Assembly (NCBI GenBank): GCA_026066175.1 | Contig: GCA_026066175.1_4721.1 | Length of the DNA stretch: 64,000 nt | Reading direction: 5' to 3' (one strand) | Source: a phage | Shown here: in pieces, positions 13,410 to 59,905 of the stretch | How positions within the stretch are numbered: the stretch's first letter is position 1 | How the letters are laid out: each line of letters opens with the position of its first letter | Translations under genes and position numbers: made by a program | Notes under the pieces: model-generated | Seen by the model: only the letters and a program-made list of their open reading frames with translations | Told to the model about the DNA's origin: nothing | Database searches by the model: none

Positions 13410-13733
13410 TCTCTTGGGCGAATTTAGTTCTTATTCAGTATTAACATACCGTTACCGAAATAAGACTGAGATTAGATTGTTCAGATAAGGTCGTTAATCT
13501 TATCCCGGAGGTGATGATAGGCACATCACCTCCCGCTTACGTTCTCACGCAAGAGCAGACTATATCACATCTCGTTTCAAACGGTGCTTCTTCAGCACCT
13601 CAACGAGAGTTCACTTCTTCCCAGCGCATCCAGCGCCATTCTCTTATCCAAGGAGAATGCCTCACTCGAGGGGTACAGGGGGATGAATCCCTTAGTCGTT
13701 GAACCGTCACCCTAGAACGTTTCACAACGATCC

Positions 13734-14945: not shown

Positions 14946-14985
14946 TGACTATATTCCTCTTGTGCAGTGAAACTAACTACACTTT

Positions 14986-14997
14986 CGTAATATAGCC
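14986..14997 (-). promoter_or_regulatory. candidate early promoter motif upstream of the HNH gene (GGCTATATTACG on the transcribed strand)
   Basis: Plus-strand CGTAATATAGCC in the 75-nt gap between the beta-like ORF stop and the HNH start. Confidence 0.4.
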
Positions 14998-15020
14998 TTA
15001 ATTCTGTTTACATTGAAGCC

Positions 15021-18000: not shown

Positions 18001-18230
18001 TTGGTTGCAAGATCATCCGCGAATGATATCCAAAGCTGGGCGCTTTCTTTGCTCAGCATGTATTCGTTTTCAGGAGGACCGATTAACGAAGGATCGGTTG
18101 CTGTATAATGATAAACCGCATAACGCGGCAGCTGCAAAAGCTGCACCAAACGCAATCTAGGTGATAATAACTCTTGATAACGTCGTACACCGAATTGTCT
18201 GTAGTAATCAAGGTATTTAAGTTTTGCCAT
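15021..18230 (-). CDS. multisubunit RNA polymerase beta-like subunit, N-terminal fragment (possible upstream exon; ORF tail may be intron-encoded)
   Basis: 1069 aa ORF starting 4 nt after the beta-prime fragment stop. C-terminal RSKTSLRRARDREYDKSDIGVVSEGTKDSGDVGISAYLAPNANIVSVYGETKPYDEKTDG resembles the RpoB segment ...[44 protein letters not shown]. Contains a strongly acidic insertion around 17030-17380. By-eye comparison only. Confidence 0.5.
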   Translation of the reverse strand: MAKLKYLDYYRQFGVRRYQELLSPRLRLVQLLQLPRYAVYHYTATDPSLIGPPENEYMLSKESAQLWISFADDLATKQGAPRRDQRFQLPRAKLDYRASHRRFRLVTDLSKVEKNINAQIVANYAHLNHMYIYRPTLTRWYDEWFNVRKTIWTQANEIAQQSDRQQFLLFRIPSTLPKISLMRTTQQAPTRNNLMNFATSEELSFFDFFRWLGVDRENSTMVSLDRASLDKLNVVFTDGVYFFTLNLGLMEEWRSGLAKEGEELDKTTLETFQRRWMMAVTRLWSQSANEEEQKQEEEQVLRQERDILADSPDAEYDERDVVLPNGEDLDTVLDPDELESELIGGSDEDDDAEAWNAVVERAFEDVREVPGVEVQPDFQPDEDQDITDDLFEVVNDDMPEEKVDVFDAATLPKTHGEYIQSLSDAVLVRASDLADAGQLSGVQYKAAMRNADAIHEIEAPDGSGLTLAEYVEVKPKAAKLAPEKVMPEADVIVDKSLCKSTLAVWDKHYVEHVMQKDIAAAVVAVQQAGYPVTGYKVEDVVDVMGDYQVITIKLAPVGGVPTTFPVMLPKVRKDGIYVVNGIKYRMRKQRVDKPIRKVSSSEVALSTAYGKVFVKRSERVVNNAGRWLTRQLTAMYYDKTSPLTTLKRGNVFDPSVKVPYYFAVLARNYTQIQFADWDIRLDIKTLPEHIGEDLFTEQLAGGFLTFAKNTNGEFLAVDGQNQLYVYEPNQTPTPVGTFPDFFGINAAKMPIEAADLEFMGVRIPVGVVLSYLGGLTPLLEHLKANYRTVPRGSRMGLASDEFAVSFDDESLIFSKDDRMTTLLLGGFNEYRNYIGYARGAFDNRDIYFNVVDGAGLKVRHLRELELMERLFVDPVSRTLLQNMGEPTDFAMLLLRAVELLLDDWAPNTNDVNYQRFKTYDKFAELVYKDLVGAIRQNENSSQGNRQKISISPVSVWNQILDDSASIVIDETNPMLDIKQGEEATMTGIGGRSKTSLRRARDREYDKSDIGVVSEGTKDSGDVGISAYLAPNANIVSVYGETKPYDEKTDGSSSIMSTSALAVPAADRDD

Positions 18231-41781: not shown

Positions 41782-41813
41782 CCCTCCTCCTTCCCTTACG
41801 GGTTGGAGGAGGG
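41782..41813. terminator. GC-rich hairpin (CCCTCCTCC-TTCCCTTACGGGTT-GGAGGAGGG) followed by A16
   Basis: Perfect 9-bp arms; the inner loop can itself form CCC/GGG around a UUAC (GUAA on the opposite strand) tetraloop; between convergent genes. Confidence 0.6.
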
Positions 41814-41888
41814 CTATGCCGTAAAGCAAAAAAAAAAAAAAAATGATAGTCACGAGCCCTCCAATGAAGGAGAGCCGTGACCGTCAGT

Positions 41889-42590
41889 TTAGGATGCGGA
41901 TAATCTAGCGTACTTTTGTCGAATATGGTTCTTACGGCGAACTTCGTCATCCTCGTCGCGCCATTCGAGGTAAGCTACGAATCGCCGTAACTGCGCTGCA
42001 GTCATTGTTGCTGACAGATCTTCTATTTCTAAAACAACATAGTGAACTTCGCCGACACCATCGCAGTCAGTATAACGGAATACCAAAAGATCCTTATCAT
42101 ATTCCGTGATAATAACCTTGAATCGTTTCTCGAACAAATAAAACAGTTCCGATTCGATAATCATCGGGATAACACAATTATCGTCACGTTCAATGATTTT
42201 CATCATCACACGTAACGCACGAAGCGTGTGATGGGCGAACGAACCATTAAATCGTTGATTCATTGCTTGTCCCACATCAACGATCTTTGTTCCTGGCCAG
42301 GGACGGATTACTGATTTCGGTGGTGTAAGACGGCAGCGGTACGCTTGTATAAACAACAGAATATCGGCGACATTAGGAAATTCTTCCTGGTCTTTGTACA
42401 GCTTACGGATAATATCCGGGATCGTAGTCAACAAATATTTCCTATCGCCTCCCACTTTCTCGAGATTAGCGATATGCCCTTCTACCACCGGCTGGTAAAC
42501 GAAATTATACCAGTGGTGGTATTTTGCAACGTGTTGGTATTTCGGGATGAAATTAAGAACAGCGTTCACTGCGCGTTTTAATGGGTTCAT
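41889..42590 (-). CDS. hypothetical protein
   Basis: 233 aa ORF. Confidence 0.6.
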   Translation of the reverse strand: MNPLKRAVNAVLNFIPKYQHVAKYHHWYNFVYQPVVEGHIANLEKVGGDRKYLLTTIPDIIRKLYKDQEEFPNVADILLFIQAYRCRLTPPKSVIRPWPGTKIVDVGQAMNQRFNGSFAHHTLRALRVMMKIIERDDNCVIPMIIESELFYLFEKRFKVIITEYDKDLLVFRYTDCDGVGEVHYVVLEIEDLSATMTAAQLRRFVAYLEWRDEDDEVRRKNHIRQKYARLSAS

Positions 42591-42604
42591 CAGAAGAATC
42601 CTTC

Positions 42605-43039
42605 TTATGTTTTAATATGCACATCGTCAATCCCCTCGGTAATCCAGCCGATGGGAAGGACAATCGTTGTTATCGTGTTATGTGTGTAAGGATTAAGAAA
42701 ATGGAAATAGTAATTTGTGTTAGATTGTTCGATGCGTAGGTCGAGCTGTGCGTCTTCAGGTAACCGTAACCAGGCACCGTACAGTTCATTAAACTTACGC
42801 TGAATTTTACCTGGGTTCATTGGAACCCCACGACCACGTTGATGTAGCTGACGTAATGATTCAATCAAACACTCAGAGATACCCGTTGTCGTTCCGTTAT
42901 CGCTTGTATCGACAACGATGAACTCTCGTGACCCACGACCAAGATAAAAACCAGCAACAAAAGCTGCAGCAACAAAAAATATCGTACCGATACCAATATA
43001 CCAATAGTAAGTATCCATAACGGCCTCACTTATACCCAA
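42605..43039 (-). CDS. small membrane protein (one N-terminal TM helix)
   Basis: 144 aa ORF; hydrophobic stretch IGIGTIFFVAAAFVAGFYL. Confidence 0.55.
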   Translation of the reverse strand: MGISEAVMDTYYWYIGIGTIFFVAAAFVAGFYLGRGSREFIVVDTSDNGTTTGISECLIESLRQLHQRGRGVPMNPGKIQRKFNELYGAWLRLPEDAQLDLRIEQSNTNYYFHFLNPYTHNTITTIVLPIGWITEGIDDVHIKT

Positions 43040-43557
43040 TAGTCGGCAAGCGGTTTCACCTTATTAACGGGTAATTGTACTTTACCGATATTCTCTACAT
43101 CTGCATCCGCGTAGAGAACAATTTTATCATTGTCTCTTTCCCAACGAATAATAAATCGACCAGGAAGAAGATTACCCTGTTCAAGAGACGCAGTAACCTG
43201 CTGCGTTAACACCGACAACCAAGCAGGCATCAGTGTTGCAATATCTAAGTCATTTGACCATTCAGCACGTTGCTCCACAGGGCGTAACATCCGTTGGATG
43301 GTGCGTTGAACCGTCGCAGTGATATAGCCTTTATCTTCATCACTGATCGGATCCGGACGAGACACAAAACGTTCAGTAGGCTTGTGGGTAATATGTTCAT
43401 GCAATTCGATGAGTGGTGTTGTCATAGTACTCGCTCCGTCAGAATGTAATTGGGTAACCCGCAGGGTTGTCTGCATGGTATTCAGAAGCGCAAAAGCGCC
43501 ATAAACAACAACGACACTAAGTACAACCAAAACAGAAATCATTAACGTATATTGCAT
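43030..43557 (-). CDS. small membrane protein (one N-terminal TM helix)
   Basis: ORF track 43030..43605 trimmed to ATG (MQYTLMISVLVVLSVVVVYGAFALL) with GAGGAGA SD. Confidence 0.55.
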   Translation of the reverse strand: MQYTLMISVLVVLSVVVVYGAFALLNTMQTTLRVTQLHSDGASTMTTPLIELHEHITHKPTERFVSRPDPISDEDKGYITATVQRTIQRMLRPVEQRAEWSNDLDIATLMPAWLSVLTQQVTASLEQGNLLPGRFIIRWERDNDKIVLYADADVENIGKVQLPVNKVKPLADYWV

Positions 43558-43625
43558 TGATATCTCCTCTTCATACGCATCTTGAAGATTAGTTAAAATC
43601 AACAAAAGAAAAAACGATATAAAGC

Positions 43626-43651
43626 AAGGTCCTCTGATATCAGAGGACCTT
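43626..43651. promoter_or_regulatory. perfect 26-bp palindrome AAGGTCCTCTGATATCAGAGGACCTT
   Basis: Read directly; lies between two membrane-protein genes of the same operon; could be an RNA hairpin (processing site or attenuator) or a dimeric protein-binding site. Confidence 0.4.
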
Positions 43652-43658
43652 GGATCAA

Positions 43659-44315
43659 TTAGCTTGCAGCTTCTTCATTTGTTTCAGGTTTGCTTCCCCC
43701 TAACAAACCGTCAAACAGACCCGTATGTTTCAGGTAGAAGAGAGCGATAGCGCCCATTGCTGCTGCGCTCGTCGCCGTTAATGCAACCCCTGCACGATAC
43801 TGCCATTTACGGTCAGGCTTTTGATCAAGCGCCATACGACGCATGTATTCAGCCTCTGCTTCATTCCGATGAATTTCGGATTCGGCCAAGCGGGCTAAGG
43901 TATCGCGGTCAAGGTTATCATAACGTGCGTTCATGGTGGTTTCCTCTTGTTTGGAAGTTGATTGCTTGGTAGATTCTTGGTCAACAGTCGTTTCGGTTGG
44001 TTCAAACGGCTGGTTGTTCATTTTCTGATCTTTATTGGACATGATAGGCTCCTTCGATTTTTGAGACGAAATTGATTTAAACCATCGTGGATGGCGGTAT
44101 TCGGTTTTACATGTACAGTTAAGTTTCTCATGCAGGAAGGCGTAAAAACGTTTCGCACCTACACGTAAGGCTTTCAGCATTACCCATCCACGAGCACTCA
44201 AACGGTGTAGCTGTTGCGGTATGTCGAGTTTCCTAGCCAAGCGAAAGTATCTCTCAATCACTTCGATAGGAAACCATTGTTGTTCCACATCGGTGAGACT
44301 GAAAGTCTTATCCAT
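43659..44315 (-). CDS. membrane-anchored protein (C-terminal TM helix)
   Basis: 218 aa ORF; C-terminal GVALTATSAAAMGAIALFYL hydrophobic helix; first gene after the motif at 44346-44357. Confidence 0.55.
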   Translation of the reverse strand: MDKTFSLTDVEQQWFPIEVIERYFRLARKLDIPQQLHRLSARGWVMLKALRVGAKRFYAFLHEKLNCTCKTEYRHPRWFKSISSQKSKEPIMSNKDQKMNNQPFEPTETTVDQESTKQSTSKQEETTMNARYDNLDRDTLARLAESEIHRNEAEAEYMRRMALDQKPDRKWQYRAGVALTATSAAAMGAIALFYLKHTGLFDGLLGGSKPETNEEAAS

Positions 44316-44345
44316 GAATGAAATCTCGCTGGCTTACTTCACTTA

Positions 44346-44357
44346 AGTAATATAGCC
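44346..44357 (-). promoter_or_regulatory. candidate early promoter motif (GGCTATATTACT on the transcribed strand)
   Basis: Plus-strand TAAGTAATATAGCCGTGAAA, ~30 nt upstream of the start at 44315; the same 20-mer recurs at 59607-59626. Confidence 0.45.
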
Positions 44358-44465
44358 GTGAAAAATGATGGAATAAGTTAAATACGACAACCGCAACTAA
44401 TTTTATAGGCTTTTAGCCTAAACCAATCATCTTCGGAATCATCATCTTTGAAACAGGAATCTATC

Positions 44466-45287
44466 ATGGAAAAAGTATTTGTTTGTAAGTTGTTTACCAA
44501 CGGCAATAGCCAACCAATGTATCTGACCGATCCTGTTCTAGGTAATCGGAACAGTACCGTATTCAAAGAAGCTTTCGAATACGCTAAAAATAAAGCCGTG
44601 AGAACACTGACGTCCGATGACTGTATCAACGGTATCACGTGGGCAGAGTTATTCGGTGATGCTGTTAGACACTTCGTTCAGGACGCAAGAAAACAGGAAA
44701 TCAGTCTCACGACTATCGTTGTGCGCGAAAACGCAGAAATTTTATCAAACGTTTTAGTTGATTTTAATGACGTTTGCGTGTTTAATCCAGAGAACACGTT
44801 TGAACAATATCTTACTACCCTGAACAACCAGCTCGGTAAAGATATTCATCCCGAATTCGCCAAGTTAACGTATCAAGTGCTTTTTAACGACGTCGATCCA
44901 AACACAAAGATCAACACCAGCTTATCGTCCCTGGTAAAGAAATACGGATCGGTTCTTGCTACGGCAACACCCACCACCGATGGCGGTTATGATATCGAAT
45001 TGGATGGTCCATTAAAAGAACAAGAACCTACTGGGATTCGGGCGGTACATCACAACCTCGTCGTTAAATCTGATGGATGCGATGAACATTACGCTATGAT
45101 AAACGATGAAAACAATTACCGTTTAAGTCAAGCGATTGGTGTTCTACGCTATACCGAACCCACTGTTGTAGACGATTATACATCGACAACAACACACACC
45201 ACGTGTTTCATTTTCATCTATCCCAATGAAAGTGTATACATTACCGACTGCTATGGCAATACCGTAGATAGCTTACGTCGTTATTAA
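44466..45287 (+). CDS. hypothetical protein
   Basis: ORF track 44448..45287 (TTG start) trimmed to ATG with AGGAA SD. Confidence 0.6.
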   Translation: MEKVFVCKLFTNGNSQPMYLTDPVLGNRNSTVFKEAFEYAKNKAVRTLTSDDCINGITWAELFGDAVRHFVQDARKQEISLTTIVVRENAEILSNVLVDFNDVCVFNPENTFEQYLTTLNNQLGKDIHPEFAKLTYQVLFNDVDPNTKINTSLSSLVKKYGSVLATATPTTDGGYDIELDGPLKEQEPTGIRAVHHNLVVKSDGCDEHYAMINDENNYRLSQAIGVLRYTEPTVVDDYTSTTTHTTCFIFIYPNESVYITDCYGNTVDSLRRY

Positions 45288-45292
45288 TCATC

Positions 45293-45320
45293 AAGCCTGT
45301 CCTTCGGGGCAGGCTTTTAT
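45293..45320 (+). terminator. intrinsic terminator (AAGCCTGTCC-TTCG-GGGCAGGCTT + TTTT)
   Basis: Classic stem-loop plus T-tract 5 nt after the stop of 44466..45287. Confidence 0.65.
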
Positions 45321-45395
45321 GCCGTTAAATAACTGGAATAAGAATTAACAAAATAGGAAAATGGTGTGAATATAACACAAAGGAGGGAGATGATT

Positions 45396-45512
45396 ATGTT
45401 ACTCATTCTAATGGAGAGAGCATTGCTGGCGGGTATCTGCGCATTCTCTGTTAAACACGCTGTTGCTATCATGGCTGAAGAAAGGCGTAATACGCATAAT
45501 GTATTACGCTGA
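45396..45512 (+). CDS. possible small hydrophobic protein (38 aa, MLLILMERALLAGICAFSVKHAVAIMAEERRNTHNVLR)
   Basis: Found by manual translation; AAAGGAGGG SD 7-9 nt upstream of the ATG; below the ORF-track size cutoff. Confidence 0.3.
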   Translation: MLLILMERALLAGICAFSVKHAVAIMAEERRNTHNVLR

Positions 45513-45621
45513 AAACACTGTGTGCATTAGTGTATGACGAGAAATCGTCGAGGCCCCCGTCTTCACGAGGGCCAACACCTATGCATGATTATCCACCGTC
45601 TGTTAAACAAAGGTTATAAAC

Positions 45622-45930
45622 ATGAGCAATTTGAACGTTGAGTTTACTTCAACAACGCCTGTCATGAATGGTGTTGGCACTGAAACCAAAATCGTATTAG
45701 AACCCATTCCAGGGTTACGCGATCTCGGTGATTTTTATCCACTGATGCCGCGTATACGGAAGGCCTTAAACAGTATCGATCTTGATTCCAATAAAGATTT
45801 CCAACACGATACAGAAAATACCGATCATGTATTGCTGCCATCAGGGATCGCAAAATTCACCTACACGCAAACATTGAAAGCCTCTGATGGTGAAATCCGT
45901 CGTTTTATCGTTGAAGTAGAAAGCGCATAA
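45622..45930 (+). CDS. hypothetical protein (102 aa)
   Basis: ORF with AAAGG SD, followed by the hairpin at 45935-45966. Confidence 0.55.
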   Translation: MSNLNVEFTSTTPVMNGVGTETKIVLEPIPGLRDLGDFYPLMPRIRKALNSIDLDSNKDFQHDTENTDHVLLPSGIAKFTYTQTLKASDGEIRRFIVEVESA

Positions 45931-45934
45931 AAAC

Positions 45935-45966
45935 CATCCTCCCAACCCGTAAGGGAAGGGAGGATG
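45935..45966. terminator. GC-rich hairpin (CATCCTCCC-AACCCGTAAGGGAA-GGGAGGATG)
   Basis: 9-bp arms; the loop is the reverse complement of the loop at 41791-41804; between convergent genes. Confidence 0.55.
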
Positions 45967-45983
45967 AAATATGCCGTTAAACG

Positions 45984-46613
45984 TTATTCAACAAACCCTG
46001 CGTTCAACAGATTGTCGTAAACACGATTAGCGACATCAACAGGAGAATGTGTGTTACTGGTATCTATACGCAGCGTTTTCGCGTCGCCGAGATAGTCCAT
46101 AAAATCCATGTAACGATAACGTCGTTTATTGAATGTCGCTTCATCGATGTTATCAAACATCTGATGTTTAGCGTGACGAACACGGAACCGTCTTAAATAC
46201 GTAGGATAGTCAATATCCAGATAAACATAGTAAGATGGCATGATAATCGACGGTAGGTTCGGCAACAATGCGTCAAACAACTTAACGTTAGCGTCATTAA
46301 CCTGATAAACATACGTCGAAGCAATCGAACGATCGCTAAGCACGGTCTTCCCTTCGTTAAGGGCTGGATGAATCACCTTGTTGAAGAGATGATTACGTTG
46401 CGACATCATCGCCAACAGTTCAGTTTCTGGATCGAATCTGTTCGTTGGTGTCTGATCTTCCAGGATAAGTTTACGAATGGCTTCTCCGTAGAGCGTACCA
46501 CCGGGTTCACGTACAACACAGACGTTGTTTAAACGACTGTGTAAAGACGAGATAACCGAACTCTTTCCTGAATAATCCAAGCCTTCAATAACGATATATT
46601 TATTACGAGACAT
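45984..46613 (-). CDS. tmk: thymidylate kinase (dTMP kinase)
   Basis: P-loop IVIEGLDYSGKSS (cf. Tmk IVIEGLEGAGKTT), REPGGT lid-like motif and LSDRSIASTYVYQ (DRY/DRH-type motif); start trimmed to ATG (MSRNKY...). Confidence 0.75.
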   Translation of the reverse strand: MSRNKYIVIEGLDYSGKSSVISSLHSRLNNVCVVREPGGTLYGEAIRKLILEDQTPTNRFDPETELLAMMSQRNHLFNKVIHPALNEGKTVLSDRSIASTYVYQVNDANVKLFDALLPNLPSIIMPSYYVYLDIDYPTYLRRFRVRHAKHQMFDNIDEATFNKRRYRYMDFMDYLGDAKTLRIDTSNTHSPVDVANRVYDNLLNAGFVE

Positions 46614-46629
46614 TCCCCGCTCCAATTAA

Positions 46630-47805
46630 CTACTTCGTTTTCGCCGTTATCGGCTGCGATACTGTAATCTCGACCCGATCGACATCGGTACGTTTAACGA
46701 TGATAAGGCTGCGTCCATCACCAAATGGTTCTGAAACCTTACAAGCCTCTTTAAGATTTTCGAGAATCTTGCCATATGGTTCAAACACCGCAAAACCGGA
46801 ACTAGCGTCGATTCTTATTAGACTTACACGCGTACCGTTTACGGTAATGGTGTCATCCGTCTTGAATTCACAACAGGAGGGTAGACGGAACTGGCCGGGA
46901 ATACCGGCTACGTATGCCTCACCACCGAACATTTCTATTAATGTCACCGGTTTGAATGCTTTCTCTGGGAAAGCACTATTAAGGGTATCGTTTCCATTCA
47001 CAAACCAGATCGTTACTTTATCTTCGGAATACGCTAGACGGTACGGTTGGGTTGCGGACGCTTGCGCTTTATGCTGGTTGAATAACTTTGATTTTGTCGC
47101 AATTACAGCACGACCTTGGGCATCAAAGTACAGAACTTCATACCCAACACATCCGATAAACACGCGACGGTTATTAAGTTCCGGAATTCTGACTACTAAT
47201 GCATTACCATCTTCCGTCGGTGTAATACCACGTAGAATAATCGATTCGTTATTCAATACTGAGTTGTCCACGACGATGCTTCGCATTACCGCTGGGGTTA
47301 CTGTTTTATCTGCGGTAGGTTCAGGTTGCTCAGCAATGCGGTCAAAAGGTTCGATGGATACCATGGGAACGAAGTATTCAACTATATGCTTGTTTGCAGC
47401 ACCGACGTCCATGACGGTGATCTGCAAACGCGTAGCATCCGAATTCAATGCTTGTTTCACACGTTCTGCATTAGGAGTATCACGGTCAATATGAATCAAG
47501 GCTTTTACCACACCGTCGTCTTCCAACCATCCCGTTAAAACGCGACCGACGATATCGTTCACGTCACGAATCGGGAAGCACAGTTCAGCGCCATCGAGCA
47601 CCGCTTCGATTTTACTGCTAATGACGGGCACCTTACCGTCGTTAAGATGCGCCAGCAGACCGGTTACTGCACCTTCACTAACCGGATGTTTTGTCGTCGT
47701 ACTGACCAACGGTACGATAAAACGATCTTCGCTGTATTTCTCTGCACCACAGATAACCGGGACTTGAGGACAATAATCAACCAGGCCCCATTCAACAGTA
47801 TTCAT
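46630..47805 (-). CDS. hypothetical protein
   Basis: ORF track 46630..47883 trimmed to ATG (MNTVEWG...) with AAGGAA SD, which removes the overlap with the upstream gene. Confidence 0.55.
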   Translation of the reverse strand: MNTVEWGLVDYCPQVPVICGAEKYSEDRFIVPLVSTTTKHPVSEGAVTGLLAHLNDGKVPVISSKIEAVLDGAELCFPIRDVNDIVGRVLTGWLEDDGVVKALIHIDRDTPNAERVKQALNSDATRLQITVMDVGAANKHIVEYFVPMVSIEPFDRIAEQPEPTADKTVTPAVMRSIVVDNSVLNNESIILRGITPTEDGNALVVRIPELNNRRVFIGCVGYEVLYFDAQGRAVIATKSKLFNQHKAQASATQPYRLAYSEDKVTIWFVNGNDTLNSAFPEKAFKPVTLIEMFGGEAYVAGIPGQFRLPSCCEFKTDDTITVNGTRVSLIRIDASSGFAVFEPYGKILENLKEACKVSEPFGDGRSLIIVKRTDVDRVEITVSQPITAKTK

Positions 47806-47839
47806 AACGTTTTTTCCTTCTTGGGTTTTGTACGAGTTG

Positions 47840-48454
47840 CTAACGGCGTTTTGTACCGACCTTCCCGTTTCGATGGTCATCAAGAATACGCCATTCTTCG
47901 AACAGGAGTTCAGCTGCGAAATAACCGACGGCGATGCTGTCTATTGCATGCTCATCAAGATTCGCTAACACAACACCGTTCCTAGGTGTGATGTTCATGA
48001 GGTTCAACACTTTCTGGCGAACATCATCCTTACCGACACGGGACGTCATAATCCCAACAGCGCGTTTTGCGCTTCGGTTATCAACCCCTAAGAAAGACAC
48101 CGTAGGGTCAAAATCGATAACCGTCGTCTGAATCGCTGAAAACAGCTCACTGAGCGCCATACCGCTTTGCTTGAAACGACCGATGAATGGCGTCTCACAA
48201 GCGACCGCTTGCGGCCGGTACTCTTGCAATAACGTTGTCAGCGAACGACGGTGTTCTTGGATACGTGCGGCACGATTACCGTATCCAAGCGCAATATCAC
48301 CATCGGGATCATATCGACGTGAAGCGTGCCATGTCCCCGCATACAGCAGTTCAATATCTTCGACACGCACGTCCAAACGTAGTAACGACGCACCGAGCGT
48401 ATCGGTGCCAGGGTCGATTGCCAGAATATCGTAAGCGTATTCTGGTGGGATCAT
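47840..48454 (-). CDS. RuvC-like Holliday junction resolvase
   Basis: YDILAIDPGTDTLGASLL (RuvC motif I, cf. ILGIDPGSRVTGYGV), AVACETPF (Glu) and LDEHAIDSIAVG (cf. DAADALAIA); start ATG overlaps the upstream stop (ATGA). Confidence 0.7.
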   Translation of the reverse strand: MIPPEYAYDILAIDPGTDTLGASLLRLDVRVEDIELLYAGTWHASRRYDPDGDIALGYGNRAARIQEHRRSLTTLLQEYRPQAVACETPFIGRFKQSGMALSELFSAIQTTVIDFDPTVSFLGVDNRSAKRAVGIMTSRVGKDDVRQKVLNLMNITPRNGVVLANLDEHAIDSIAVGYFAAELLFEEWRILDDHRNGKVGTKRR

Positions 48455-49266
48455 GGTGTTACAACAGCCTCTACTGACCATGGGAAGGTTTTCGCAATAA
48501 CACCTTCCAGGAAGCGTTCAACTTCCGATTGCTCATACACCGAAAGCTTTTCAAACGGCGTTTGGTCTTCGGTTAAACCCACCGCGTGAATAGGACCCAG
48601 GTCTTTAACCAGAGTAACTTCGCCTTTAACGCCTTCGCGTTTAACGATGATCGCATGATCATTAACCTTAGGATCATACAGCACACGCATCATGGTTACC
48701 GCGTCATCCGGTTCATGACCGAAATCGATGGCAACACGAGCATTCGTCCCTTCTTCGTCCAGAAGCTTGCTTAGCGCTTTACAACGGTCTTCAATCCAAT
48801 CCAACGCGACCACGGTTTCTTGGCGTAGCTGAACCTCAACCTCTTTTCCTTGTTCGTCGATACGTTTCACGGTAACAAAATCATGCAATAAACGGTCAGG
48901 GAGGAGAGAAGCAATAAGTTCAACGTTGGGTTCAGGTTTTTCGTTTTCCAGAATGATGGTCGCTTGTGCGTCCAGATGTTCTTTAAAACGGATGTAACGT
49001 GTTAATCGCAGAACTTCATCTTGGGATTTTGCGTCTTCGGGAATAATCTCCGTCATGACGTTATAAATCTTTTCAGCGAACGTCGGAATTACGGTGATTG
49101 TAATTCGTGCTGGTGTACCACGCTCCTGGTACTCATCGGCTAACTTCTTCGCCATCCCGTTAAAATAAGTCTGGAGAAACGGTTGCTGCGTTAAAAACAT
49201 TTTCTCCAGATCGGAATAGCGATGCTTGCGTGCATGGCCTAGCTTCTTCATGGGTTTTTTCATCAA
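48451..49266 (-). CDS. hypothetical protein, translationally coupled to the RuvC-like gene
   Basis: 271 aa ORF between the SbcC-like and RuvC-like genes; no Mre11/SbcD phosphoesterase motifs seen. Confidence 0.6.
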   Translation of the reverse strand: MMKKPMKKLGHARKHRYSDLEKMFLTQQPFLQTYFNGMAKKLADEYQERGTPARITITVIPTFAEKIYNVMTEIIPEDAKSQDEVLRLTRYIRFKEHLDAQATIILENEKPEPNVELIASLLPDRLLHDFVTVKRIDEQGKEVEVQLRQETVVALDWIEDRCKALSKLLDEEGTNARVAIDFGHEPDDAVTMMRVLYDPKVNDHAIIVKREGVKGEVTLVKDLGPIHAVGLTEDQTPFEKLSVYEQSEVERFLEGVIAKTFPWSVEAVVTP

Positions 49267-49284
49267 CAGAAATCCTTATTTGTC

Positions 49285-51741
49285 TTAAATAATCGTGACG
49301 TGTTCGTTATATGTTTCAGGGAGAATGATGTTCGTTTTATCAAGAACCATACACTCGGCTTTACGGAATGATGCATGGTTGATCACATAGTGACTGATGA
49401 ACCACACCTGGCTTACGCGGTGACCATCAACCAGACGACGAACAAAATCCATGGCATTAGATTGGTGCTGCGGATCAAATGTTGATGCGAATTCATCTAA
49501 CATCAACGGATAATCCGTAAACCCCTTGTAATGCATCATCGCGATGATGAACGCGATATTGATAATTTCCTTTTGTCCCTTACTCCCATAAACAATATCT
49601 TTTCGCGGTGTCGGATACTTCTCAGTTAAAAGCGGAAAACGATAGTTCAATCCTTGCGCGTCGATAGCACACGGGAGTATCTGCAGTTGGTATTCCCAAA
49701 TACTCGCAATGATGCCGTTCATGTACTCAACGAACGCGTTGATGGGACCCGCAATTGTTTCGGCAATCAGTCCGTTGGATGGACTCAACTCATCCAGAAC
49801 AAGTTGTGCGTAACTGAGCTGTTCTTCCACCTCTTTTTGTGTCGTTTCCAACTGAGCCAGAAGCTGCTGGTCGGTTTTAGCTTCCTGTAGTTGCTGTTCG
49901 ACATGACTTATTCGGCGAACTGTATCAGACATCGCAGCACGTAACGATTTCGTGTAGAGGTGTTGCAGATACTCTAACCACAGTTGCGTTAACGCTTTAT
50001 CGCTGTTATCAGAACGTACCTGATCTTCCATAATCGCCGTAATGGTTTCCAATCTACCTTCCGTAGCTGTGATGGCTTGTGTTAACCGCTCAACGGTTGT
50101 TAACAACTCTGTCCTGTTCTTATAAAGCAATTCTCGACGTTGCTGTAACGGTTCAACATCAACCGCTTGTACCCGTTCGAGCATGCCTTGAAGATGTTTA
50201 CGTTCTTGTTCGGCTTGTGTATAACGTGCGAGTTTCTCGAATGCAAGCAACCAATCATTAATGATTCCAATGCTGCGGAATCCTAATCCGTTTTTACGTC
50301 CTTCTTCCAGCAGATTGTCCCACATGGGTTTAATGGCGTAATAATCCTTCGTCCAACGTGTTAACTGACGATGTTGTTCCATCCAGAGCGTATAACGCTG
50401 AACCTTCTCGCTAAGCTCAGCTAACGATTTCTCTTGTTCTTCAACCCAAGCACGGCCTTTCTGAATGCGTTGTTCAATACTCGCTTTGCTGGTCTTTTCC
50501 GTTTCACCAACATGAAAGCGATAATTGCATTTTGGACAGCTGGTCTGGGGTTGATGATTCAGATGGTCGAGATGCGCTTCCAAATCGGCTAACGCATGTT
50601 TCGCGTTACGCAAACGCATTCTTGCTGCCTCTTCCTCCTTGATGTAAGCTTCAGCATCGTAAACATGATAGGTGTTGTCGGTATCAATCCATTCTTGCAA
50701 TAGTTCTGTTAACGGAGCCTGAACTTGCGTGAGCTGTTGTAAACAAACCGCGGCGTCCAGATTCATCGTCAAAAGCTCACCCGGATGATCTTGCTGAAGT
50801 TGTTCGTCCAAACGTGCGAGGCGGGCTTTAATCTGATCGATATCGCCTTCGCCAGACTGTTTCAACTGGTCAAGGATATTATCGATACCCAACAGCTCGT
50901 CGACCTGACTTTCAAGTTTCGCATTCGCATTCGCGAGTTGTTCTCTTAGTTCAGCCAGATTCTGCTGTTCTTGTTGCGATGTTCCTCCTTGGTAACGAAC
51001 AACCGCGCGAAGAAGTTCGCGATTAAAATGATGGGCACGTTGTGCGGATTCCAGAAGCTGTCGTTGATCAACATCACTATCGAATAACGGCAATCCCATC
51101 ATCGCTTCGAGCGCTGAGCGTTGCTGTTTTAACTCTGCTTCCAATCCCTGGTGGTCGGTTCCGGTGTATTTCGCTTCAATTCGCTGTGATGTTTCAACCA
51201 ACTTATTCAATGTATGCTCATTCACCGCTTTCAGTGAACGTACTTGTTGCTTAACCACCTGAAACAACTCAAGCGCATAATCGACGTTAACCGGACATAT
51301 TTGTGTTAATCGTTCGCGTCGTTTCATCGGTCCCATTTCGGTGAACTGGTAAGCTGTTTCGTAACCTAACAACAAACGAATGGTGTCGTCATTAAGTTCG
51401 AAATGTTCTTCGATCAGTTTCCACTGGGCTGGTTGTGTACCACCACCGTTCAGGTTCTCACTGTCGTTAACGTAGAACTCATGCTTAAACCCTTTTTCTA
51501 AACGACTGATAAGACGGTATTGCTTATTACGGTGTTCGCAGCGGTACTCGTAATACCCATCTTTATCAAAATCGGCGCGCTCGGGAACGGTTGGATACAG
51601 CAAAGGCAGTAGACTACTCTTACCCGAACCGTTGCTGCCTAAAATGAGTTGTACGGGATTATCTGGCCGGATGACCAGCTCCCGAATCATCCCGGTATCA
51701 AAACGATTGAATCCACGTAAGTGGAGATACGTACATCGCAT
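49285..51741 (-). CDS. SbcC/Rad50-like ATPase with zinc hook
   Basis: N-terminal Walker A LILGSNGSGKSSLL, long heptad-rich middle region containing CPKCNYRF (CxxC hook), C-terminal LMLDEFASTFD (Walker B/D-loop). Confidence 0.7.
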   Translation of the reverse strand: MRCTYLHLRGFNRFDTGMIRELVIRPDNPVQLILGSNGSGKSSLLPLLYPTVPERADFDKDGYYEYRCEHRNKQYRLISRLEKGFKHEFYVNDSENLNGGGTQPAQWKLIEEHFELNDDTIRLLLGYETAYQFTEMGPMKRRERLTQICPVNVDYALELFQVVKQQVRSLKAVNEHTLNKLVETSQRIEAKYTGTDHQGLEAELKQQRSALEAMMGLPLFDSDVDQRQLLESAQRAHHFNRELLRAVVRYQGGTSQQEQQNLAELREQLANANAKLESQVDELLGIDNILDQLKQSGEGDIDQIKARLARLDEQLQQDHPGELLTMNLDAAVCLQQLTQVQAPLTELLQEWIDTDNTYHVYDAEAYIKEEEAARMRLRNAKHALADLEAHLDHLNHQPQTSCPKCNYRFHVGETEKTSKASIEQRIQKGRAWVEEQEKSLAELSEKVQRYTLWMEQHRQLTRWTKDYYAIKPMWDNLLEEGRKNGLGFRSIGIINDWLLAFEKLARYTQAEQERKHLQGMLERVQAVDVEPLQQRRELLYKNRTELLTTVERLTQAITATEGRLETITAIMEDQVRSDNSDKALTQLWLEYLQHLYTKSLRAAMSDTVRRISHVEQQLQEAKTDQQLLAQLETTQKEVEEQLSYAQLVLDELSPSNGLIAETIAGPINAFVEYMNGIIASIWEYQLQILPCAIDAQGLNYRFPLLTEKYPTPRKDIVYGSKGQKEIINIAFIIAMMHYKGFTDYPLMLDEFASTFDPQHQSNAMDFVRRLVDGHRVSQVWFISHYVINHASFRKAECMVLDKTNIILPETYNEHVTII

Positions 51742-51806
51742 GCTATGATAATCCTTATTCGGTACTATTTTCTATATCGTTATTCAAATCAGTAGGAGAT
51801 TACAGC

Positions 51807-52895
51807 ATGGGTGATCAGGCAACGGATAACCGTACAAAAGGGAGCCAACTCGCTCCGGATAACAACGTCAGCGTTTTTCGTATTTTTGCCTTGGGTACTG
51901 TAGCAGCTGACTTTTCCAACAAAAGCCTGGAAGAAGACCCTAATCAAACGCTGGAAGTCTTTCTCGATGAAATGATGTCAGGCGCTGACGGGAAAGTTGA
52001 AGCAGCTGGAAGCGTTAAGGAAGTGAGTGCGACAGACGCACAAGGAAACAGCTATACAGCAAAGGCTGCAACAACAACCAGCGTACAATGTTACTGGTTA
52101 CCATTCGGAAGCAACCGCATGACCGCACCTAACTTAAGGAAAGGTCAACGTGTGGTGGTTTGGCGTACCGCGGATGAAGAACAGCTTTATTGGCAGCCTA
52201 AAGGGGGCGATAGTGAGCTGATGACCATGGAATCGGTGATTCTTACCGTGAGCGCACGTCCGAGCGCGAAGAAAGATCGTAAGTCGATTTCCACCGAAGA
52301 CTGTTACTACCTCATGGTCGACACGTTCCTCAAGAAAGCCGTTATCGGCACCAGCGCCCAGCTTGGTGAAGTCACGCAGGTATACATGGAACTGAACTTG
52401 GATGAAGGCTATCTACAGGTGGCGGATAGCGTTCATCAAAACCTGTTGTTGCTGCATTTCGTTGAACACATGCTGCGTTATCAAAACCAAGATGACAGCA
52501 TCATTGATGTAACGAAGAAAAACATCACGTTCCAATGCGAAGACACACTCAAAGTTATCGCTAAGAACGATATCCGGATGAAAGCGAAAAACATCTATAC
52601 GGAATGCGAGAATTTCGAACGGACAAGCAAGACAGAGAAAGTAACCAGTCAGAACGTTTCATTGAAGTGTGAACGCTATACCGCACAGGTCTCTGGACAA
52701 ACCACGTTCAAATGTCCGAAAACGGTATTCACTGGTGCGGTAAGCTTCACCGGTGAAGACGGCAACACCATGACGTTGAATGGAAACTTCGTGCATGTAG
52801 CGGGGTCTTGGCGTTCACCATCAGGAACCAACGTCTACACGCACGATCATGGTGGCGTAGAACGTGGTGGTGGTAAAACAGATCCGTTCCATTAA
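51807..52895 (+). CDS. putative tail spike / cell-puncturing protein (beta-helix-like repeats, C-terminal HDH motif)
   Basis: C-terminal third has repetitive short beta-strand-like segments (KNITFQCEDTLKVIAKNDIRMKAKNIYTECENFERTSKTEKVTSQNVSLKCERYTAQVSGQTTFKCPKTVFTGAVSFTG) ending in YTHDHGG, reminiscent of gp5/gpV-type spikes with metal-binding His; pattern-based only. Confidence 0.35.
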   Translation: MGDQATDNRTKGSQLAPDNNVSVFRIFALGTVAADFSNKSLEEDPNQTLEVFLDEMMSGADGKVEAAGSVKEVSATDAQGNSYTAKAATTTSVQCYWLPFGSNRMTAPNLRKGQRVVVWRTADEEQLYWQPKGGDSELMTMESVILTVSARPSAKKDRKSISTEDCYYLMVDTFLKKAVIGTSAQLGEVTQVYMELNLDEGYLQVADSVHQNLLLLHFVEHMLRYQNQDDSIIDVTKKNITFQCEDTLKVIAKNDIRMKAKNIYTECENFERTSKTEKVTSQNVSLKCERYTAQVSGQTTFKCPKTVFTGAVSFTGEDGNTMTLNGNFVHVAGSWRSPSGTNVYTHDHGGVERGGGKTDPFH

Positions 52896-56014: not shown

Positions 56015-56873
56015 GGTTTCTGTTTTCCTTGGTTTGTTGTGGTCCCAGGTCAGAGATATCCCAACGGATATAACCAACATCACGGATTCGCTCGGCTATT
56101 TCTTCGAATTGTGAATCACGACTGATAACCGGTAACCATTCCCCTTCTCGGGTTATCTTAACTTCGGCGATCTGTAAGCTCATGTTCCAACGAACGTCAT
56201 AAACCAGCGCGTAACCAAGAGGATGAACAAGCCCATCCTGGTTATACATCTTCAAAAGACCTCTTACGTCTTCGCTGCGCGGTAATTCCGCCATAGCAGG
56301 ACGTACACGTTGAAGTCTCTTTGTGGTATCGTATCCTAGCTCAATATCTTTCCAGCCCGTCATGACGTAAGGAACAACGTTGCGGCGACGGAGTTGATGG
56401 TTGTGAGTGGTTTCTTCGGCGGTAAGGTGTACCCAACCGAGATCGCTGTACGCCACGAACCGCGCTCCTTCTCCATCGAGCACTGTGTGCTCATCTAACG
56501 CTGCTGCAACACCATGGCCTGCGTAATACGGCGGAAGAACGTTCAGCATTTTAATACGGCTTTCTTGACCGGTATGGTCAGGGTCGATATGCGCGTAGTA
56601 ATAATTACGGCTTACCGGACGACCTTCCGCCATACGTCCACGGAAGACAGGGTCCTGCATTCCAAGCGGATGGTAATACGCGAGCTGTTGTTCGTCACCT
56701 TCCCCGATGACCAACAAACGATCTTCACGACTTGGTGTGCTAGGATCTTTCACCGTGATGTAGGTAACAATCACTTTCAGATTGTCTAAAATGTCCTGTG
56801 GAAGTTTCTCTAAATCCCGTGCGTCGTAAATACGATTAACAACAACGTTTGCAATGTGTTTTGGTAAGCTCAT
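55977..56873 (-). CDS. paralog family B protein (298 aa), unknown function
   Basis: Shares blocks with three upstream paralogs: AYYHPLGMQDPVF, GWVHL, VVPYVMTGWKD, KRLQRVRP, GLVHPLGYALVYDVRWN, WLPVIS, GYIRWDISDL. Confidence 0.6.
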   Translation of the reverse strand: MSLPKHIANVVVNRIYDARDLEKLPQDILDNLKVIVTYITVKDPSTPSREDRLLVIGEGDEQQLAYYHPLGMQDPVFRGRMAEGRPVSRNYYYAHIDPDHTGQESRIKMLNVLPPYYAGHGVAAALDEHTVLDGEGARFVAYSDLGWVHLTAEETTHNHQLRRRNVVPYVMTGWKDIELGYDTTKRLQRVRPAMAELPRSEDVRGLLKMYNQDGLVHPLGYALVYDVRWNMSLQIAEVKITREGEWLPVISRDSQFEEIAERIRDVGYIRWDISDLGPQQTKENRNHVDENDSKEQSL

Positions 56874-56953
56874 TTTAGATCTCTCTTTGTTATTGGTAAA
56901 ATAAATAACGGCATAAAGGGGACATAACTGCCCCCGTGTTAAATATCAACTGT

Positions 56954-57796
56954 TCACGCTTTCAGATCTGAAATATCCCAACGTACGTAACCGGTACGCT
57001 CAATGTCGTCAACCAGTTGCTTGGTTTGATTTTCAACACCAACGACAGGCACCCAATTTAAACGCCAGCGCCCACCGACATTAACCTCAACACGCTGCAG
57101 ATCTTCATTCCAACAAACCCCATTCGGTCTCAAAAAGCCCATCGGGTGGACGAAGTCCTCATCGTAATCTTTCAATAGCGCGAGAATATCGCTTCGGCTA
57201 TAAGTCTTCACGCTTGCTAGATGTACGCTTTGTAGCTTATCGCGCAGACCCCAACCATACTCACAATCACGCCATTCAGGCATGACAACCGGCAGTACAT
57301 TCCGATGACGGATGTATTTTGCCGCTTCAGCAATATCAGCTGGAAGATGTATCCAACCTAAATCGCTGTTAGCAATAAAATCAGGACTGTCCATTTCATG
57401 GATGTAATGATCGTAAAGCGTAGCAGCGAGTCCTTCAGCAAGCACGTTTGTTGGAAGGAGGCAGTTGGCGCTTATCTTGAAATCGAATACATCGGCATCA
57501 GGATCCACATACGCGTAAAACCCGCGTGCGAAAGCGCCGCCATGTTCTTTGAAGCAGTACTGGAATACATTGTTTTGCATTCCGATGGGGTGGTAGTAAG
57601 CCAACACACGTTGTTCGCCGTCCGTGATTTCAATGAGCTGATCTTTCGGCTTCGGCCAGGTGATCTTCTCAACACCGCAAACGCTGACGATCTTTCGTAG
57701 ATTCACCTTGATATGTTCCGGGAGATGCCCGATTTCATTTTCATGATAAACACGGGTGATAACGGTATTGATAACCGGCTGTGGTTTAGCTATCAT
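56954..57796 (-). CDS. paralog family B protein (280 aa), unknown function
   Basis: AYYHPIGMQNNVF, GWIHL, VLPVVMPEWRD, DKLQSVH, FVHPMGF, WVPVVG, GYVRWDISDL; GAGGAA SD. Confidence 0.6.
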   Translation of the reverse strand: MIAKPQPVINTVITRVYHENEIGHLPEHIKVNLRKIVSVCGVEKITWPKPKDQLIEITDGEQRVLAYYHPIGMQNNVFQYCFKEHGGAFARGFYAYVDPDADVFDFKISANCLLPTNVLAEGLAATLYDHYIHEMDSPDFIANSDLGWIHLPADIAEAAKYIRHRNVLPVVMPEWRDCEYGWGLRDKLQSVHLASVKTYSRSDILALLKDYDEDFVHPMGFLRPNGVCWNEDLQRVEVNVGGRWRLNWVPVVGVENQTKQLVDDIERTGYVRWDISDLKA

Positions 57797-57836
57797 TTAT
57801 CGTTTCCTCTTCGTTTTGTGGTTATTGATATTCGTA

Positions 57837-58703
57837 TTACGGTTTAAGATCTGCGATGTCCCAGCGGACATAGCCAACACGTTCGATTTCGCGAGCAAGG
57901 TCTTCGTTGTGAACGTCTACCCCAACAACAGGTAACCAGTTCCCATCTTTGCTGATCTTCACATGAACGATGTTTTGCGAAGTGATGAACTGATTAACAT
58001 CGTGCACCAACGCATAGCCTAACGGATGGATAAAGCCTTCAGCGCAGCATGAATCACGAAGAACGCTCAACATGTCGACGGCTGAAGGGCTAACGCAACG
58101 GACAGGGCGTACGCTTTGCAATTTGTCGGATGCCGCTTGGGCAACGCGTGCATCACGCCATCCCGTCAAGTATACCGGTTTTATATCCCGTTTTAGTAGA
58201 TGTTCGATCTGGATCGCTGTGTCATTATGAACATACACGCAGCCCTGTTCGGTTTCGGTGTCGTAGTCACCTTCATTAAACGCGTTTATTCGGGCAGGAT
58301 AAACCTTCTGGTCTATCGTCACGGCAACCCCTTCAGCGAATGTGGTCAACGGAAGAAGACGTTCTAAACACGCGATTGGATAATCCGCTGATGCTCCAGG
58401 ACGAATATGCGCCAGCATTCCCCAACCATCAGGGAATCCATGTCGGTACATGTATTGCTGGAATACCTCATCCTGCATTCCTAACGGGTACCAGCGTGCA
58501 AGCCGCTGCTGCTCACCGTCCTGAATAACAAAAAGCATTTCTTTGCGTTTAGGCCAGCGGTGATGTTCTACGGCCAAGCCCTCAACGATCGGTTTCAAAT
58601 TGGCTTTGATATGCTCAGGAAGTTGATCCACCTCTTCACGACGATAAATACGATCGATGAGGGTAACGTCGATCTTCTGGCCCATCATCTGCATTAAACT
58701 CAT
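57837..58703 (-). CDS. paralog family B protein (~288 aa), unknown function
   Basis: ORF track 57837..58844 trimmed to ATG (MSLMQMM...) with AGGAG SD; ARWYPLGMQDEVF, PVYLTGWRD, DKLQSVRP, FIHPLGYALVHDV, WLPVVG, GYVRWDIADL. Confidence 0.6.
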   Translation of the reverse strand: MSLMQMMGQKIDVTLIDRIYRREEVDQLPEHIKANLKPIVEGLAVEHHRWPKRKEMLFVIQDGEQQRLARWYPLGMQDEVFQQYMYRHGFPDGWGMLAHIRPGASADYPIACLERLLPLTTFAEGVAVTIDQKVYPARINAFNEGDYDTETEQGCVYVHNDTAIQIEHLLKRDIKPVYLTGWRDARVAQAASDKLQSVRPVRCVSPSAVDMLSVLRDSCCAEGFIHPLGYALVHDVNQFITSQNIVHVKISKDGNWLPVVGVDVHNEDLAREIERVGYVRWDIADLKP

Positions 58704-58770
58704 TTTTATTTCTCCTGCTGTTTTACGATGCATCGTTTTGCTCCTGTGGTTCTTTGTTTTCGGTATCGTG

Positions 58771-59523
58771 TTATGCCTGGCGTAGCATGGTAACGTCCCA
58801 TCGTACCAGCTTGCTTCGCTCAAGCATCCCCTGCGCATGCGCAACGCTTAAGTCCGACGGCACCACCACCGGCAACCAACGTTCGTTAAGCACCTTCGCT
58901 TCCAGCCGCTGCTTGCGTTTGTTGTAACGCACCTCGCTAACCCATGCATAACCGAAAGGATGGATAACCCGTAGGTAGTAACGTTTCAGCATGGCAAGAC
59001 GTTGCTGATAAAGCATATCGGAACCTGCGCTGACGAACAAGGCCACCCGTTCCAACCGCCTGGTGTAATACGTTCCAACGGTATGGTTGATCCAACCCGG
59101 AAGCACCAGTTCATCAGGCGTATCCGCCCATGAGGTATCGTGCACCTCACCGCTATACACCGTCCCAGTCACCTGGCCCGATGCGTCCAACAACGACCGT
59201 GGTAAATCATCCGCGGTAGGATACAACCATGCATCATCAAGTCGCTCCCCCGATGCAAGCACGCGTAACCCGCTTGCGCTTACCCGCGATGGATGCTGGC
59301 TCTTATGCGCACGCAATGACACCACAGACAGATCCGTTGGATGAGCAAGACAACACCCCCGCTGACGGAATAACCCAACCGTACCATCCACCCCTTCGAT
59401 CATGCTTCCTTCCAAACCGTCCCACCAGTAGTTTACCTGCACGCATTCTGCTTTCACTGCCTCAGGCAACAGTAAATAGTCACGTTCAATGAACACGGTA
59501 TCAAAAATGATTTTATCGCTCAT
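58771..59523 (-). CDS. paralog family B protein (250 aa), most diverged member
   Basis: VIHPFGYAWVSEVRYN, WLPVVV, LVRWDVTML align with the other three; AAGGAA SD; first gene downstream of the motif at 59608-59622. Confidence 0.55.
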   Translation of the reverse strand: MSDKIIFDTVFIERDYLLLPEAVKAECVQVNYWWDGLEGSMIEGVDGTVGLFRQRGCCLAHPTDLSVVSLRAHKSQHPSRVSASGLRVLASGERLDDAWLYPTADDLPRSLLDASGQVTGTVYSGEVHDTSWADTPDELVLPGWINHTVGTYYTRRLERVALFVSAGSDMLYQQRLAMLKRYYLRVIHPFGYAWVSEVRYNKRKQRLEAKVLNERWLPVVVPSDLSVAHAQGMLERSKLVRWDVTMLRQA

Positions 59524-59607
59524 GGATAAAGTTCCTTGTTTTCACGTTGTTTGATTAACGTACTGATTTCTATTTGACAGAAGACGAACATTGTACGCAT
59601 CTATCAC

Positions 59608-59622
59608 GTAAGTAATATAGCC
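59608..59622 (-). promoter_or_regulatory. candidate early promoter motif (GGCTATATTACTTAC on the transcribed strand)
   Basis: Plus-strand GTAAGTAATATAGCC, ~90 nt upstream of the start at 59523; 20-mer TAAGTAATATAGCCGTGAAA is identical to 44343-44362. Confidence 0.45.
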
Positions 59623-59734
59623 GTGAAAGGATTTGTATTACAGAAAGGATATTTGTTTTCTAAGAAGGGATGGTTACCAGGAAGGAGGTTATCGATAGGT
59701 GTATTTCAAGGAAGGTTTAAGAGGATAGGTATTG

Positions 59735-59905
59735 TTGTTTTGTTTATCTTAGTTTGTCTATGTATTCGTTTAATGTGTTATCTTAGTTTTAATGATCTTT
59801 TCAAAAGTGTTATCATGTTTATCTTAGGTTATATTTTAATTGCTTTAAGTTATTTGTTTTATCTATCTTGTTATCTTGTTTAAGTTGTTAATTGCTTATC
59901 TTCAA
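59735..59905. repeat. cluster of at least 8 direct repeats of TTATCTT(A/G) in an AT-rich noncoding region
   Basis: Copies read at ~59745, 59779, 59805, 59819, 59860, 59865, 59872, 59894; embedded in a ~800 nt region with no credible ORF. Confidence 0.5.

Follow-up and report, generated by a model that had tools for sequence, protein, structure and literature searches.

The window analysed here is a 64,000-nucleotide stretch of phage DNA (NCBI GenBank assembly GCA_026066175.1, contig GCA_026066175.1_4721.1), in which genes for an SbcC/Rad50-like ATPase, for an orphan protein of 270 or 271 amino acids (aa) and for a RuvC-like resolvase of Holliday junctions lie side by side on the minus strand. 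A sequence-only reading of this DNA had taken the three genes as a repair and recombination module whose ATPase has no recognisable SbcD/Mre11 partner, and had proposed either that the orphan protein takes the partner's place in a non-canonical way or that the nuclease gene is located elsewhere. To our knowledge, Rad50/SbcC is partnered by Mre11/SbcD in all characterised systems. Megablast of window positions 46000-52000 gave a single match, Escherichia phage vB_EcoM_Goslar, at 96% identity. Goslar is a chimallivirus, i.e. a nucleus-forming jumbo phage, with a genome of 237 kb. When the whole window was mapped, Goslar 1-9979 corresponded to window 41789-51765 (94.9% identity) and Goslar 194856-237307 to window 1-41843 (82-93% identity), so that both ends of the Goslar record lie inside the window. 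The window evidently comes from a relative of Goslar, and we use the Goslar gene numbers throughout.

The three genes belong to a run of five co-directional minus-strand open reading frames (ORFs) at 45984-51741, for which the Goslar annotation agrees with the gene calls. The intergenic gaps along the cluster are 21, -4, 34 and 4 nucleotides (nt), and no minus-strand terminator-like site was found inside it; the layout therefore seems operon-like. The orphan gene (gp011; 48451-49263/49266) starts 21 nt downstream of sbcC. At its other end the overlap that the sequence-only reading had described is indeed present: on the minus strand (...ACA CCA TGA TCC...) the gp011 stop codon TGA overlaps the ruvC start codon ATG at 48454, forming ATGA. 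An SD-like (Shine-Dalgarno-like) GAGG is located 13 nt upstream of this ATG, whereas a Shine-Dalgarno sequence is lacking at the other in-frame ATG of ruvC, 48481 (213 aa). Position 47840 of the sequence-only reading is where ruvC stops.

The gene at 49285-51741 (minus strand; gp012, ortholog of phiKZ gp165) encodes an 818-aa protein that matches phrog_77, 'SbcC-like subunit', with E=4.7e-74 and Pfam SMC_N with 2.7e-10. Its ATPase motifs comprise Walker A GSNGSGKS at residue 35, SKGQ at 720, Walker B PLMLDE at 745 and the H-loop ISH at 782, and a CPKC zinc hook stands at residue 402 of 818, i.e. at the midpoint. Six ATPase homologs with 23-49% identity, including those of phiKZ, PhiPA3, RAY, PhiEaH1 and a metagenomic relative, share invariant G35, N37, G38, G40, K41, S42, S720, D749, E750, S783 and H784, as well as C402, P403 and C405 of the hook; phiKZ gp165, at only 23% identity to the window protein, retains all of the motifs. 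A profile of these six sequences was searched against PDB, where the top 11 matches are all archaeal Rad50 (1e-7 to 5e-5) and profile positions 374-480 match the human RAD50 hook structure 5gox. Positions 441-552 of NCBIfam Rad50_Sulf align to the same hook region (ATPase residues 369-483, E=8.6e-6). A single-sequence phmmer search of the ATPase against PDB returned nothing significant. The 818-aa protein is a Rad50/SbcC-family ABC ATPase, with an intact ATPase site and a CPxC hook halfway along a long predicted coiled-coil insert. The ATPases of Escherichia coli SbcCD, T4 gp46/gp47, T5 D13/D12 and archaeal and eukaryotic Mre11-Rad50 share this architecture, in which a coiled coil bearing a CxxC hook interrupts the ABC head, although E. 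coli SbcC is longer (1048 aa, from the coordinates of its coding sequence) and the similarity of the chimallivirus ATPase to cellular proteins is very low.

Genes of this type were detected by tblastn in 287 phage records, whose hosts are all chimallivirus-type, and the SbcC-like ATPase is a core gene of chimalliviruses. In phiKZ, transposon insertions in orf165 are not tolerated (bioRxiv 10.1101/2025.11.23.690004). This essentiality counts against a reading of the ATPase and its neighbours as a Lamassu/ABC-ATPase-type defence or counter-defence system, for which one could cite weak PADLOC matches of the ATPase to LmuB (1e-12), mad3 (2e-10) and AbiLi. Those scores represent generic SMC/ABC similarity and are far below that of phrog_77. 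Moreover, no LmuA or other effector is encoded nearby, and neither gp011, ruvC and the neighbouring gp009 nor the SbcD-like gp178 described below has a PADLOC match. A defence role of a gene that is core and essential in chimalliviruses thus seems extremely improbable.

As reported in the sequence-only reading, the flanks encode no phosphoesterase, and a recognisable SbcD is likewise absent from the window as a whole. No phosphoesterase signal was found in the flanking 391-aa and 270-aa genes, and the profile of the SbcD-like family described below has no match among window ORFs of at least 50 aa (best E-value 0.32). This is a statement about the window and not about the genome. The claim of an SbcC without an Mre11-family partner holds for these 64 kb, but it probably fails genome-wide, in that the reference phage Goslar encodes such a protein, gp178. 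It arose because only 64 kb of a 237-kb genome were in view and the two genes are always unlinked; the other possibility that had been named, a nuclease encoded elsewhere, is the one that our data favour.

Several routes to this partner led nowhere. No gene is named SbcD or Mre11 in the Goslar annotation, and a regular-expression scan for GN[HC][DE] over the ORFs of Goslar, the window and phiKZ gave nothing relevant, the lone phiKZ match being in the terminase. E. coli SbcD, used as a tblastn query against phages, reached no chimallivirus and is too insensitive for this purpose. A Pfam scan of the 216 Goslar ORFs at E<=0.01, which carried two sentinel copies of gp157, returned gp157 as the sole Metallophos-type match and missed gp178. 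Iyer et al. (2021, PMC7824862) describe SbcC and SbcD as practically universal in jumbo phages and RuvC as typical of group 1, and phiKZ was rescanned with Pfam for that reason. One additional weak Metallophos match appeared (E=0.0013), which a motif scan assigns to gp65, a protein containing '...LTVGDVHMGH...ITGDLFDR...'. Its Goslar ortholog (blastp 1e-51, 32% identity) is gp178 (HOV27_gp178), of 380 aa, encoded at NC_048170.1 162609-163751 (L005:1613-2752, minus strand). The profile of this SbcD-like family has one match each in Goslar and phiKZ. In the Goslar record, gp178 is labelled 'hypothetical protein'.

The alignment of the SbcD-like family consists of 37 sequences, in all of which the phosphoesterase motifs are retained: D20 and H22 of motif I (D-x-H), G56, D57 and D60 of motif II (G-D-x-x-D), H172 and G173 of motif IV (M-H-G), and G209, H210 and H212 of motif V (G-H-x-H) are invariant. 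Motif III takes a variant form, E-G-T-P/x-S/x-H-D, with invariant G96, T97, H100 and D101. The canonical form is G-N-H-D/E, whereas that of the gp178 family is G-T-x-x-H-D, and the GN[HC][DE] scan was a false negative for this reason. When the family profile was run against PDB, each of the top 15 matches was an Mre11/SbcD structure, led by 2q8u of T. maritima (1.7e-9); in the Mre11-Rad50 complex 3qg5 it is the Mre11 chain that is matched, at 4.5e-8. Both gp178 (E=1.8e-40) and phiKZ gp65 (2.7e-53) match phrog_100, 'SbcD-like subunit', and several metagenomic homologs are labelled with Pfam PF00149 or, by JGI, as 'SbcCD nuclease subunit'. With its calcineurin-like phosphoesterase motifs I-V and a length of about 380 aa, gp178 resembles Mre11/SbcD, and by sequence it is a divergent, motif-complete member of the SbcD/Mre11 phosphoesterases. 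The gene is already named SbcD in many records, e.g. those of Noxifer, PhiEaH1, RisingSun, Ea35-70, SPN3US and pTD1, and SbcC also carries its name in many of these.

A second phosphoesterase of Goslar, gp157 (185 aa, Metallophos_2/phrog_547; 140999-141556, L004:29003-29557), was considered as a minimal Mre11 and rejected: it belongs to phrog_547, 'phosphoesterase', and its sporadic occurrence does not track the ATPase. Genes of the gp157 type are patchily distributed, being found mostly in Enterococcus, Streptomyces and Bacillus phages, in some Erwinia jumbo phages and in only 3 Pseudomonas records. A weak, sub-threshold NCBIfam likeness of gp157 to the ligase-associated endonuclease PdeM was also seen.

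The SbcD-like and SbcC-like families have the same phyletic distribution across chimalliviruses. By tblastn, 315 phage records contain the SbcD-like gene and 287 contain the SbcC-like gene, and the counts per host genus (SbcD/SbcC) run in parallel: Pseudomonas 81/81, Erwinia 62/60, Salmonella 24/24, Vibrio 23/22, Serratia 21/21, Aeromonas 19/19, Klebsiella 16/16 and Ralstonia 13/13. In none of the chimalliviruses checked are the two genes linked; they stand about 81 kb apart when the Goslar map is followed round, and in phiKZ the distance is about 113 kb. The gp178 gene lies about 31 kb past the left edge of the window on the Goslar map. In E. coli, by contrast, sbcD and sbcC overlap in one operon. 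The SbcD-like gene of Goslar stands alone rather than in an operon with another sbcC, a case that the sequence-only reading had considered, and there is one sbcC.

The separation of the two genes leaves room for a different role of the ATPase, namely that of an SMC-like protein, mainly independent of a nuclease, which would tether or organise the phage's chromosome within the phage nucleus, with the distant SbcD-like gene acting separately. The zinc hook and the predicted long coiled coil would fit tethering. In phiKZ, antisense oligonucleotide knock-down of 'Nuclease 065' or 'SbcC-like nuclease 165' reduces plaquing, and the strengths differ, the core-genome 'Nuclease 065' (gp65) being scored '++' and gp165 '+' (PMC12571901), which could be taken as a sign of separate action. 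Such a role is nevertheless doubtful, as the two families share their phyletic distribution and the nearest solved relatives of the ATPase are Rad50 heads, not SMC or MukB. Established knowledge also speaks against it, since Rad50/SbcC works with Mre11/SbcD in characterised systems.

We conclude that this region, rather than holding an SbcC that lacks its nuclease, most probably belongs to the usual recombination and repair genes of a Goslar-like chimallivirus. Several points weigh against this conclusion. The SbcD-like gene is outside the window, and its presence in the phage from which the window derives is deduced from Goslar and Goslar-like contigs; the exact SbcC protein of the window is recorded only on contigs of 6.5-7 kb. 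Motif III of gp178 is non-canonical (GTxxHD) and the protein has no Pfam Metallophos match at E<=0.01, so that its nuclease activity is presumed from conservation. Unlinked sbcC and sbcD genes are unusual when compared with E. coli sbcDC and T4 46/47, and a physical complex of SbcC and SbcD in chimalliviruses is likewise something that we infer. As for the first point, the gp178 ortholog occurs at 100% identity in a 254-member cluster that is found on a 236,896-bp Goslar-like contig, and the phage of the window presumably has an ortholog as well.

For gp011, the orphan gene between sbcC and ruvC, no match above threshold was obtained in Pfam, PHROGs, NCBIfam, PADLOC or the PDB sequences, which agrees with the sequence-only reading, in which it had been called an unknown protein. 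HMMER returned 5 matches among 1.84 billion representative proteins, only 3 of them full-length (P0002, P0003, P0124), and tblastn against 50,697 phage records reached Goslar only; a word-seeded search and a profile search of PDB likewise found no homologs beyond Goslar-like ones. The homologs, at 43-44% identity, share no invariant His or Cys, and residues 1-105 are the best conserved part. Although the protein as a whole is acidic (pI 5.3), its N-terminal tail is basic and rich in Lys/Arg. AlphaFold2 (AF2) modelled it poorly (pLDDT 46.8), and a Foldseek search with that model was uninformative. In relatives at 44% identity gp011 keeps its place between sbcC and ruvC. The gene is a fast-evolving one that is specific to the Goslar lineage, located between two core genes and translationally coupled to ruvC.

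These data bear directly on the proposal that gp011 is a non-canonical nuclease partner of the ATPase, replacing Mre11/SbcD functionally. Its position 21 nt downstream of sbcC, kept at 44% identity, is what a partner gene might show, and an uncharacterised protein could have a novel fold. The distributions disagree, however: gp011 is confined to Goslar-like phages, with its 5 matches in 1.84 billion, whereas the ATPase is found in 287 chimallivirus records, and in other chimalliviruses unrelated small genes follow sbcC. Neither an invariant His or Cys nor a PD-(D/E)xK, HNH or metallophosphoesterase signature was found in gp011, and profile searches of 48451..49266 and of the neighbouring 46630..47805 for nuclease folds yielded no nuclease match. 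In addition, there is a genuine SbcD-like gene, whose occurrence follows that of the ATPase. By these criteria gp011 is not a metallophosphoesterase and is unrelated to every nuclease family that could be tested; a role as nuclease partner is largely refuted and must be considered very improbable.

The coupling to ruvC suggests another partner. Translational coupling is the reason why we propose, as a tentative best guess held with low confidence, that gp011 is an accessory, non-catalytic factor made together with the resolvase, e.g. a DNA-binding or regulatory partner. A more specific version, in which gp011 serves the RuvC-like resolvase as an accessory subunit, with a junction-binding or targeting, RuvA-like role and a ratio fixed by the ATGA coupling, would account for the stop/start overlap with its upstream SD-like GAGG, for the gp011-ruvC order kept in all Goslar-like relatives examined, and for a chimallivirus RuvC that has no RuvA/RuvB partner in the phage (Iyer et al. 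2021, PMC7824862). This version is unlikely. In other chimalliviruses the gene upstream of ruvC is phrog_3315 or a phrog_1037 virion protein, families unrelated to gp011, and the profile-profile comparison of gp011 with phrog_3315 members was negative (probability 0.5%). No DNA-binding domain signature was found in gp011, and translational coupling is common between unrelated phage genes. The related idea that gp011 is itself a diverged phrog_3315 member was rejected on the same hhalign result together with a negative hmmsearch. Still less likely, in our view, is that gp011 is a new adaptor that links SbcCD end-processing to RuvC junction resolution, or regulates one of the two, in the phage nucleus; if so, it would be a recombination accessory factor without known homolog.

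The RuvC-like gene itself (gp010; 47840-48454, minus strand; 204 aa) scores 24.5 bits against Pfam RuvC (cut-off 22.2) and E=9e-22 against phrog_159. Its score against NCBIfam ruvC is weak, about 21 bits with cut-offs of 100-163. In 6 chimallivirus RuvC-like homologs D14, E87, E168-H169 and D172 are invariant, in the contexts DPG, (C)E and EHxxD, and we take these residues to correspond to the acidic catalytic residues of RuvC. Invariant acidic and His residues are thus shared with the RuvC family, both bacterial and of the poxvirus A22 type, and the Pfam score is above the cut-off. Both database assignments agree with the earlier gene call, as does phrog_77 for the ATPase. The gene is present in 212 phage records; in phiKZ-like phages, RusA replaces RuvC (Iyer et al. 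2021, PMC7824862). The window protein ends in a short basic tail, GKVGTKRR. Long Lys/Arg-rich C-terminal tails, e.g. KKKKRGGRRRRKKGKKG, are seen in some chimallivirus RuvC-like proteins (L017:3495-4145 of Vibrio phage pVa-21 and L011:7591-8337).

The gene order was compared across chimalliviruses. The order sbcC-gp011-ruvC(-gp009)-tmk is kept in Goslar-like relatives, including one with gp011 at 44% identity and without gp009. Elsewhere, in RAY/Ea35-70-type phages, PS119XW, EL and pTD1, ruvC is 13-27 kb from sbcC. Differing, unrelated small ORFs follow sbcC in phiKZ, PhiPA3, RAY and PhiEaH1, unlike the sbcC-gp011-ruvC-tmk arrangement of the Goslar lineage. In the phages with the 13-27 kb distance a phrog_3315 gene, alone or together with one for the phrog_1037 virion protein, comes before ruvC, and in some of them tmk comes after it. 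The feature conserved throughout chimalliviruses, in phiKZ and Goslar alike, is the baseplate gene that lies upstream of sbcC and is transcribed divergently from it. The 'module' of the sequence-only reading is therefore real as an adjacency in the Goslar lineage but not as a unit of chimalliviruses at large, where sbcC and ruvC lie apart; it is a Goslar-lineage juxtaposition of two core genes.

Downstream of ruvC, the 391-aa gp009 (46630-47805, minus strand) has no family match in Pfam, PHROGs, NCBIfam or PADLOC. It points the same way as its neighbours, but it is missing in the diverged relative L011, where ruvC abuts tmk, and so does not count among the conserved genes of the cluster. The protein is a mosaic: among Goslar-like phages the C-terminal ~225 aa are nearly invariant and the N-terminal ~165 aa are variable, occurring in two very different forms that lower whole-protein identity to ~60-65%. 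Its AF2 model has a pLDDT of 48.7, with the N-domain better modelled. On this low-confidence model, Foldseek found a weak likeness of the N-domain to the T4 gp21/herpesvirus prohead-protease fold (E=0.013) and no nuclease fold. The co-directional run ends with a thymidylate kinase gene (gp008; 45984-46625, minus strand; Pfam Thymidylate_kin E=9.8e-28, phrog_761 E=7.4e-37), and the ruvC-tmk adjacency also exists in Klebsiella phage LPKP23 and in L011.

Two further differences between the window and Goslar were observed. Window 56024-59894 has no megablast match to Goslar and is a divergent or replaced segment relative to it; the ORFs at 56954-57796, 57837-58844 and 58771-59523 have no PHROG matches. 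On the minus strand, window 13409-15054 is an insert of ~1.6 kb that is missing in Goslar, where 208353 and 208395 are contiguous. It contains a group I intron (Rfam RF00028, window 13536-13959, 51.4 bits) and a NUMOD1/I-TevI-like homing-endonuclease ORF (13734-14945), and it interrupts a virion RNA polymerase beta-like gene, leaving 15021-18230 and 12279-13409; the uninterrupted counterpart is Goslar gp207, of 1448 aa.

The value of this analysis is mainly corrective, and it adds little by way of discovery. A 64-kb window cannot support the absence of a partner gene, since 80-110 kb separate sbcC from sbcD in chimalliviruses. The 'hypothetical protein' label of gp178 in the Goslar record invites the misreading of an orphan SbcC, and neither a GNHD/E motif scan nor Pfam Metallophos with the usual cut-offs catches the GTxxHD variant. 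The SbcCD and RuvC recombination set of chimalliviruses is already known, being core or near-core and annotated in many relatives. As part of that set, the SbcC-like and SbcD-like proteins would assemble in trans into an SbcCD/Mre11-Rad50-type complex, which may clamp DNA ends or hairpins in an ATP-driven manner so that they are cut and processed in phage replication and recombination. The RuvC-like enzyme would resolve Holliday junctions or branched concatemers ahead of packaging, and phage DNA would be the substrate of both activities, presumably within the phage nucleus.

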